A stretch of 64,000 nt of DNA from Escherichia coli (GTDB lineage Bacteria > Pseudomonadota > Gammaproteobacteria > Enterobacterales > Enterobacteriaceae), in the NCBI RefSeq assembly GCF_003334315.1, contig NZ_QOWR01000001.1; one strand, written 5' to 3'. Positions 48,397-49,130 of this stretch are shown here, one piece after another. The notes under the pieces are model-generated. The model was not told the DNA's origin. It saw only the letters and a list, made by a program, of their open reading frames with translations, and ran no database searches. The number at the start of each line of letters is the position of its first letter. The first letter of the stretch is position 1. A program made the translations under genes and the position numbers.

Positions 48397-48490
48397 TAAT
48401 CAAAAGGAAACAAAAATCATTGTAAACCATGCCATCTTTTTAGAGATTACCAGCAGAAAATTCCTTGTTCGAAATTTAGCAGTGCAAGCT

Positions 48491-48646
48491 ATGGAAAAAC
48501 TTACAACGGAACTACACTCCTTAAGTGAGATGGACCGAAGACATGTAGTCTCTATTTTAGCCGAAATAGCTAATGGCTATGATGATTTTAATGACATGTT
48601 GATTTATTTAGAATTTTACCCGAATCATAAGATTCTGATATCTTAA
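48491..48646 (+). CDS. Small 51-aa ORF (possibly yrhD), function unknown
   Basis: Hand-translated ATG ORF MEKLTTELHSLSEMDRRHVVSILAEIANGYDDFNDMLIYLEFYPNHKILIS; below the 60-aa track cutoff. Confidence 0.3.
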   Translation: MEKLTTELHSLSEMDRRHVVSILAEIANGYDDFNDMLIYLEFYPNHKILIS

Positions 48647-48845
48647 ATAAGAAAATCCCGTTCGACGTTCTGAAAAAGAAATCATAAAATATTAGCAGAT
48701 ACTTATTTCGTGACTATATCTTATCCGATGAACTTTTTTCAAAACCAGCATTTAATAATATCTTTGACGAAGATGAACGCGTCTTTGCTCAATGTATCAC
48801 ACAGGAATAATAATATAACACTCAACAATAATATTTATTATAATT

Positions 48846-49130
48846 ATGATTACTTATCACGACGCATTCGCGAAAGCGAACCATTACCTTGATGATGCAG
48901 ATCTCCCGGTCGTCATTACTCTACATGGACGCTTTAGCCAGGGCTGGTATTTCTGTTTCGAAGCACGAGAATTTCTCGAAACTGGAGATGAGGCCGCGCG
49001 CTTAGCTGGTAACGCACCTTTTATTATTGATAAAGACAGTGGTGAAATTCATTCTCTGGGAACGGCAAAACCGCTGGAAGAATATCTACAGGATTACGAA
49101 ATAAAAAAGGCTACCTTCGGCTTGCCCTGA
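48846..49130 (+). CDS. yrhB: Small acidic protein YrhB (function unclear; possible orphan immunity-like cassette)
   Basis: 94-aa ORF MITYHDAFAKANHYLDDADLPVVITLHGRFSQGWYFCFEAREF... Confidence 0.85.
   Translation: MITYHDAFAKANHYLDDADLPVVITLHGRFSQGWYFCFEAREFLETGDEAARLAGNAPFIIDKDSGEIHSLGTAKPLEEYLQDYEIKKATFGLP

Follow-up and report, generated by a model that had tools for sequence, protein, structure and literature searches.

The yhhZ-yrhA-yrhB locus of Escherichia coli lies between yhhY and ggt in the stretch of DNA analysed here (the window: 64,000 nucleotides of contig NZ_QOWR01000001.1, assembly GCF_003334315.1), and it can be set beside several systems that have already been described. The closest is the Hcp-ET1/ETI1 pair. 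In the published summaries, Hcp-ET1 of O104:H4 and of Shiga toxin-producing E. coli is an HNH DNase delivered by the type VI secretion system T6SS2, and ETI1, encoded directly downstream, neutralises it, as known from the near-identical proteins of O104:H4 and O22:H8 (PMC6730261, PMC6099711, bioRxiv 10.1101/2024.03.05.583533). YhhZ is itself placed as Hcp-ET1 in such a summary (PMC6730261), and has been assigned to group 32 of the His-Me finger nucleases (PMC5714182). A second system is the pairing of Imm35 immunity proteins with papain-fold Tox-PL1 toxins, which Imm35 is predicted to neutralise (Zhang et al. 2012, PMC3482391). Orphan arrays of the Rhs and CdiA type form a third, and the K-12 allele of yrhA, a pseudogene (b3443) by insertion of IS1E, has already been catalogued (PMC12428005).

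Comparison of the locus with these systems and with its relatives in other genomes makes a polymorphic toxin island, based on an orphan Hcp gene and made up of the YhhZ/YrhA pair and the leftovers of earlier cassettes, the probable explanation. YhhZ would be an Hcp tube protein carrying an HNH DNase at its C-terminus (Hcp-ET1), and YrhA, translationally coupled to it, the cognate immunity protein (ETI1), cut by IS1E only in the K-12 lineage. The toxin end would have been exchanged by recombination past the conserved Hcp-linker part (codon 219), leaving the old immunity gene behind. Successive cassette replacements on the Hcp gene would have left yrhB, and before yrhB a gene for a protein of 85 amino acids (aa), downstream. 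The partner toxin of yrhB would be the papain-fold Tox-PL1/Gln_amidase that E. fergusonii still has, at this locus and on this Hcp, and yrhB has most likely been kept through binding and neutralising incoming PL1 toxins. The remaining gene, yrhD, would be an E. coli-only open reading frame (ORF) on a spacer segment. The features on which this reading depends are as follows.

46727..47905, + strand: yhhZ, Hcp tube protein fused to a putative HNH nuclease toxin of the Hcp-ET1 type (Pfam, NCBIfam and PDB matches, literature)
46727..47383, + strand: constant part of yhhZ (Hcp domain and linker), common with the E. fergusonii Hcp-PL1 toxin (blastn)
47902..48396, + strand: yrhA, intact, predicted cognate immunity gene (ETI1 type) of the HNH toxin (NCBIfam, overlap, literature)
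47384..48841, + strand: exchanged cassette with the HNH toxin end, yrhA, the yrhD segment and a pseudogene (no DNA similarity to E. fergusonii locus L017 between the flanking matches)
48846..49130, + strand: yrhB (94 aa), intact putative orphan immunity gene of the Imm35 family (Pfam, synteny, linkage, selection)

Alternative toxin ends on one Hcp carrier

The exchange was located by comparison with E. fergusonii. Upstream of the same ggt-yhhA-ugp genes, locus L017 encodes (at 499-1650) a 383-aa Hcp protein with a PF15644 Gln_amidase domain ('Papain fold toxin 1', 1.2e-17), its toxin end comprising residues 234-383 or so, and the stop codon of this Hcp-Gln_amidase gene overlaps the start of a yrhB orthologue whose product is 83% identical to YrhB. 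By blastn, positions 46663-47383 of the window match L017 435-1155 at 93.6% identity; the match takes in the promoter region together with the Hcp domain and linker, and ends at codon 219. DNA similarity resumes at 48842-49296 (89%) and continues through yrhB. The stretch exchanged between these matches is 1458 nucleotides (nt) long in E. coli, as against 489 nt for the PL1/Gln_amidase toxin end in E. fergusonii. A single Hcp carrier has toxin ends that differ between species, an HNH end in E. coli and in Citrobacter and a PL1 end in E. fergusonii, and behind each end stands an immunity gene of its own.

The linkage of YrhB-like proteins to PL1 toxins extends well beyond this carrier. When 48 genomes from many phyla with relatives of the PL1 end were inspected, 47 had a YrhB-like ORF on the same strand starting less than 200 nt downstream, and these loci contained no further match. 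In Pectobacterium and Yersinia, CdiA proteins with a Gln_amidase end are also followed directly by homologues of YrhB (66-70% identity). No YhhZ-like Hcp N-terminus was found in the 48 other PL1 loci, which indicates that the toxin/immunity module moves between delivery systems.

For the pair now occupying the carrier, the Hcp domain of YhhZ is recognised by Pfam T6SS_HCP (2.5e-11) and NCBIfam TssD (3.8e-34) and has Hcp matches in the PDB. The HNH match is weak (Pfam 0.013, residues 322-343), with the H-H...N...H motif visible. YrhA has NCBIfam NF038335, the YrhA family, as its sole family match (1.5e-36); it has no match in Pfam and no relative by sequence in the PDB. The start of yrhA overlaps the stop of yhhZ (ATGATGA), and its ratio of nonsynonymous to synonymous polymorphism (pN/pS) is 0.23-0.46. 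Over the whole locus, the window is 99.8% identical in DNA to the single match in one O104:H4 genome. This identity, taken with the secondary sources, suggests that YhhZ/YrhA is Hcp-ET1/ETI1, with neutralisation by YrhA predicted. Two observations on YhhZ alleles may be added here: codon 235 (window position 47430) is Tyr in the window lineage and Ser in all other alleles examined, and the YhhZ protein accession is the same in a K-12-type strain (L001) and a wild strain (L002).

yrhB as a candidate orphan immunity gene

YrhB matches the Pfam family Imm35 (PF15567) from end to end (E=4.6e-23, profile positions 1-85 of 85). In a 29-sequence alignment it keeps all the invariant residues of the family (L53, G55, N56, P58, D62, G66 and T73), and its W34 and T73 match the W and S/T residues given as conserved by Zhang et al. 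2012 (PMC3482391). The genes upstream of yrhB in the window are the HNH/YrhA pair, yrhD and the pseudogene; no Tox-PL1 or Ntox40 toxin gene directly precedes it, and for this reason it is called an orphan. An earlier reading of the letters alone, made by a model (the sequence-only reading), had proposed that yrhB may be a trailing orphan immunity cassette and that profiles of immunity families would bear on this; the Imm35 match, the coupling to an Hcp-PL1 toxin in E. fergusonii and the linkage in 47 of the 48 PL1 loci all agree with it. As far as homology and gene neighbourhood can tell, the case for yrhB as a trailing orphan immunity gene is solid.

The gene is also kept without the pair. 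Its pN/pS of 0.08-0.47 indicates purifying selection, and 4049 of the 5426 complete E. coli genomes have it, about 276 more than the 3773 with the HNH end. In five loci (L004, L006, L019, L027 and L028), yrhB is intact where yhhZ/yrhA is lost or dead, and in L004 and L019 the order is yhhY-yrhB-ggt. The decay of yhhZ in these loci has followed several independent routes: a nonsense codon in L027 (strain SCU-306, 626-1804), an IS1 deletion in L006, a deletion with IS1 and ISKpn26 in L028, and absence of the gene in L004 and L019.

Two other explanations of yrhB have to be weighed against this one. YrhB might be a genuine small heat-shock chaperone that has only its fold in common with Imm35 and no role in toxin immunity. 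The MG1655 annotation calls it a 'putative heat shock chaperone', and a review credits it with chaperone-like activity on the authority of Ahn et al. 2012 (PMC10723866). An AlphaFold2 model predicts, with confidence (pLDDT 92.9), a compact small alpha+beta domain, which would suit such a protein; compared with the PDB by Foldseek it found nothing significant (best E 0.07), and YrhB has no PDB relative by sequence. Against this, yrhB sits in an AT-rich variable island and is missing in about one E. coli genome in four, the close homologues of YrhB (66-83% identity) are coupled to PL1 toxin genes, with one in 47 of 48 PL1 loci, and YrhB keeps every invariant Imm35 residue. Chaperone-like activity is compatible with a very stable small binding protein, and does not explain the distribution of the gene; we regard the chaperone explanation as unlikely. 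It is more improbable still that the YhhZ HNH toxin has in yrhB a further cognate immunity gene, which would then be no orphan at all. The gene does share the strand of the toxin/immunity pair, from which it lies 450 nt downstream, and about 3770 genomes and Citrobacter have kept it together with the pair. Against this, both the 47 linked loci and the literature tie Imm35 to PL1 toxins, in E. fergusonii, which lacks HNH, the partner of YrhB is Hcp-PL1, the HNH toxin and YrhA are already translationally coupled, and yrhB occurs without HNH in single loci as well as in the surplus of genomes given above.

The main reading of the locus is itself opposed by a number of points, among them that the sole published activity found for YrhB is the chaperone-like one. 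That YrhB still protects against or neutralises a toxin is something we infer from homology and linkage. The E. fergusonii PL1 toxin end had no DNA-level (blastn) match in the 5426 complete E. coli genomes, so any benefit of yrhB would have to be against diverged toxins or those that other species carry. Allele specificity is common among immunity proteins, and the E. coli and E. fergusonii YrhB proteins are just 83% identical. The direction of the swap is likewise an inferred one: Citrobacter already has the order HNH-YrhA-85aa-Imm35, so E. fergusonii could be the derived state. That the O104:H4 Hcp-ET1 is encoded by this very locus is suggested by the 99.8% identity of the only match in one genome, and the selection result for yrhD given below comes from few substitutions (15 in total). 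With these points in mind, we put forward tentatively, and at somewhat less than even chances, the stronger proposal that YrhB is a working orphan immunity protein for about three-quarters of E. coli against PL1/Gln_amidase toxins, and that the island records at least three successive swaps on one Hcp. If it were true, YrhB would shield E. coli from PL1 toxins injected by E. fergusonii and other enterics through type VI or contact-dependent systems.

The segment before yrhB, the IS1 site and the island

Between yrhA and yrhB lie two further elements, and yrhA itself contains the site at which K-12 carries IS1E.

48646..48813, + strand: unannotated pseudogene, putative remnant of an 85-aa immunity-type gene (profile, tblastn, synteny)
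48491..48646, + strand: yrhD (b4612), 51-codon ORF with ATG start, restricted to E. coli (MG1655 annotation)
48283..48291, no strand: empty IS1E target site GACATTAAA (direct comparison with NC_000913)

A profile of the 85-aa family, run against the six-frame translation of the 64-kb window, gave one match, at 48649-48813 (32.6 bits, profile positions 2-56 of 86). By tblastn, the same sequence is 36% identical over 53 aa to Citrobacter L010:7702-7959, which occupies the same relative position: the Citrobacter freundii locus runs Hcp-HNH, YrhA-like, 85-aa ORF, Imm35, 90-aa ORF, and then ggt. The 85-aa protein has no Pfam family. It is 75-99% identical across Citrobacter species, and has 49-52% identical homologues in Budvicia and on Logan contig L025. 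In Budvicia (L023) and L025 these homologues stand directly after orphan Rhs toxin ends, the place that an Rhs immunity gene occupies. The remnant in every E. coli examined has neither a start codon nor the last third of the gene, with an extra internal TAA in the window and in the K-12 lineage, and it is in no annotation examined. By profile and position, this appears to be a real second immunity-type cassette, one that the sequence-only reading had overlooked. The C. freundii locus (L010) has two further ORFs that are absent from E. coli. One, of 309 aa (called as a gene of 294 aa), lies before the Hcp gene at 4812-5741 and matches the domain of the PA3715 family at 56.3 bits, below the curated cut-off of 70; the other is the 90-aa ORF after the Imm35 gene, at 8290-8562, which has weak winged-helix-like matches.

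The 51-codon ORF that precedes the pseudogene had been taken in the sequence-only reading for an unannotated and possible orphan immunity cassette, and on neither count did the comparison support it. It is annotated as yrhD (b4612) in MG1655 and as 'protein YrhD' in RefSeq, and it has no Pfam or NCBIfam family, and so no match among immunity families. Neither 1.8 billion representatives, searched exhaustively, nor 5.8 billion proteins, searched through an index, yielded a homologue outside E. coli; the relatives in both sets were E. coli alleles and fusion artefacts only. The ORF is single-copy and confined to the yhhZ-yrhB locus, the plasmid matches obtained by tblastn being mislabelled chromosomes only, and the segment that holds it, some 230 nt (48416-48645), is missing in Citrobacter. 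Its ATG is lost and an internal stop is present in L014 and L027, and codon 39 is a nonsense codon in L015 and L016; in these same loci yrhA and yrhB are intact, as is yhhZ except for the nonsense codon of L027. Differences between yrhD alleles are 14 nonsynonymous to 1 synonymous in two independent comparisons, not far from the roughly 4:1 expected under neutrality (pN/pS of at least 2.3, from small counts), a pattern far from that of the neighbouring genes.

A functional small protein, whether an immunity cassette or a young lineage-specific gene, would nevertheless be favoured by the fact that the window, like most E. coli of its lineage, has the ORF intact, that the frame is open for 91 codons from 48371, and that genomic SELEX (systematic evolution of ligands by exponential enrichment) reported an RpoD-binding site upstream of yrhD with promoter-like hexamers TAGAGA-18-TATATT (PMC3946193). 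This site maps to 48309-48338 of the window; it shows binding of RNA polymerase in vitro, not that the YrhD protein is important. The disrupted alleles, the 14:1 ratio of changes and the missing families and homologues all speak against such a function, as does the lack of an obvious Shine-Dalgarno sequence before the ATG when the sequence is read directly, and we think it improbable. yrhD is probably not a conserved protein gene, there being no sign in its alleles of constraint at the protein level. The possibility that it is the C-terminal remnant of a displaced toxin was also tried and rejected, since the 91-codon frame has no similarity to the E. fergusonii PL1 end or to the Rhs ends of Budvicia and L025.

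In the window, yrhA is a complete ORF of 164 codons, free of IS1 as the sequence-only reading had noticed, and no IS1 is present anywhere in the window. The same reading had stated that IS1 truncates yrhA in MG1655 and had suggested that the uninterrupted arrangement may be ancestral. NC_000913 in fact carries IS1E (768 bp) inside yrhA, with the 9-bp direct repeat GACATTAAA on either side, and the MG1655 annotation gives yrhA as a pseudogene in two fragments around IS1E. The K-12 product has 130 native residues followed by 8 residues read from IS1. At 48283-48291 of the window, GACATTAAA is single-copy. Among the 5426 complete E. coli genomes, a 300-base probe centred on the site found the uninterrupted form in 3409, across all identity bands. 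The K-12 junction of yrhA and IS1 was present in 353-358 genomes, and all 60 of the carriers listed are K-12 laboratory derivatives (MG1655, DH5alpha, C600, J53, DH1, NCM3722 and others). The single-copy target, the majority intact state and the restriction of the junction to K-12 among these 60 together mean that yrhA without IS1 is both ancestral and ordinary, and that the insertion is an event of the K-12 lineage.

A competing account is that a K-12-like strain lost IS1 again, through precise excision or engineering, so that the IS1-free gene would be secondary. The flanks lend this some colour, the window differing from MG1655 by 4 single-nucleotide polymorphisms over 4428 bases to the left of the IS1 site and by none to the right, though these 4 already set it apart from K-12. 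The account is scarcely credible all the same, given that 24 kb around the locus are 100% identical to many natural isolates, that the intact site occurs in 3409 genomes in all identity bands, that the listed junction carriers are all laboratory strains, and that the target in the window is single and clean. The 24-kb identity is with isolates from humans, pigs, poultry, frogs and sediment, and the arrangement in the window is therefore that of a natural, wild-type E. coli chromosome. K-12 keeps an intact yhhZ HNH toxin gene beside the yrhA that IS1E cuts at codon 130 (MG1655, L003 4039-5310), and codon 120 of YrhA (window position 48259) is Tyr in MG1655 and Asp in the window and others.

The surroundings of the locus are as follows.

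Gene order in the window: yhhW, yhhX, (ryhB), yhhY, yhhZ, yrhA, the 51-codon ORF, yrhB, then the convergent ggt
46491..49131, no strand: AT-rich variable island between yhhY and ggt (G+C content and divergence points of other E. coli)
49137..49160, - strand: terminator-like hairpin in the convergent yrhB/ggt gap, at the right edge of the island (scan, 10 pairs; O157 similarity is back at 49132)

The G+C content is 0.28-0.37 from about 46400 to about 48900, compared with about 0.50 in the flanks. This and the common + strand of yrhA, the 51-codon ORF and yrhB agree with the sequence-only reading, in which these genes were all on one strand and AT-rich. On the left, the contents of other E. coli diverge exactly at 46488-46490; on the right, divergence is at 48830 (yrhB-only type) or 49132 (O157 type). 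The promoter and terminator scan that gave the hairpin produced counts at the level expected by chance. In O157:H7 (L005 3392-4303) an unrelated DUF4225 gene replaces the whole yhhZ-yrhB island (window 46491-49131). A yrhB remnant in the O157-type locus was considered and rejected, the 13 bases (ATAATTATGATTA) near the right end of the DUF4225 gene that are identical to those around the yrhB start being too weak. The gene for the iron-responsive small RNA RyhB lies at about 45786-45880 (- strand), between yhhX and yhhY, where it was placed by transfer of the MG1655 annotation.

Comparison with described systems

The genes, the IS1 insertion and the Pfam assignment of YrhB were already known. 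The link to the Hcp-PL1 toxin of E. fergusonii appears to be new, and so do the exact boundaries of the swap, the pseudogene that no annotation lists and the evidence for a lack of constraint on yrhD. Two K-12 gene readings are corrected by this: yrhB is best read as a leftover immunity gene, not a chaperone, and yrhD is probably no real protein gene. The locus also offers a clean natural exchange of a toxin end on an Hcp carrier with precise boundaries; most documented exchange of this kind concerns Rhs and CdiA. In K-12 the HNH toxin gene is intact and the immunity gene next to it is truncated by IS1, a point of importance wherever K-12 serves as 'neutral' prey or host in competition experiments on type VI secretion. 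These findings do not open a new field.

Compared with Hcp-ET1/ETI1, the window has the same Hcp domain and HNH end and a 164-aa gene overlapping the toxin stop, and the pair itself shows no differences. The downstream leftovers, the pseudogene and yrhB, are absent from the published summaries of that system. K-12 differs from it in that the immunity gene is cut by IS1E and that K-12 has no type VI secretion system; the window carries the pre-insertion allele at the same site, which is common in E. coli.

In the Imm35/Tox-PL1 (PF15567/PF15644) pairs, relatives of YrhB come directly after PL1 ends on Hcp proteins and on CdiA-type proteins (TPS, Fil_haemagg_2, PT-VENN). The window differs in having no PL1 toxin, so that yrhB stands alone behind the unrelated HNH/YrhA.

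Orphan arrays of the Rhs/CdiA type were found in Pectobacterium (L009) and Budvicia (L023). The arrays of orphan CdiA toxin-end/immunity modules in Pectobacterium L009 (133-8279) and in Yersinia kristensenii L021/L022 (8546-10798) have ends of the deaminase, Gln_amidase and CdiA_C types, with SymE-like genes interleaved, and are good comparators for cassette displacement. The likeness to such arrays lies in a constant N-terminal delivery part, a recombination point that follows a conserved linker, toxin/immunity cassettes that vary, and, downstream, immunity genes that are older. The locus in the window differs in that its carrier is Hcp and that it has no orphan toxin fragments, only immunity genes, one of them decayed. 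It is thus a well-resolved example of a known process, the leaving of orphan immunity genes behind a polymorphic toxin, and not a new type of system.

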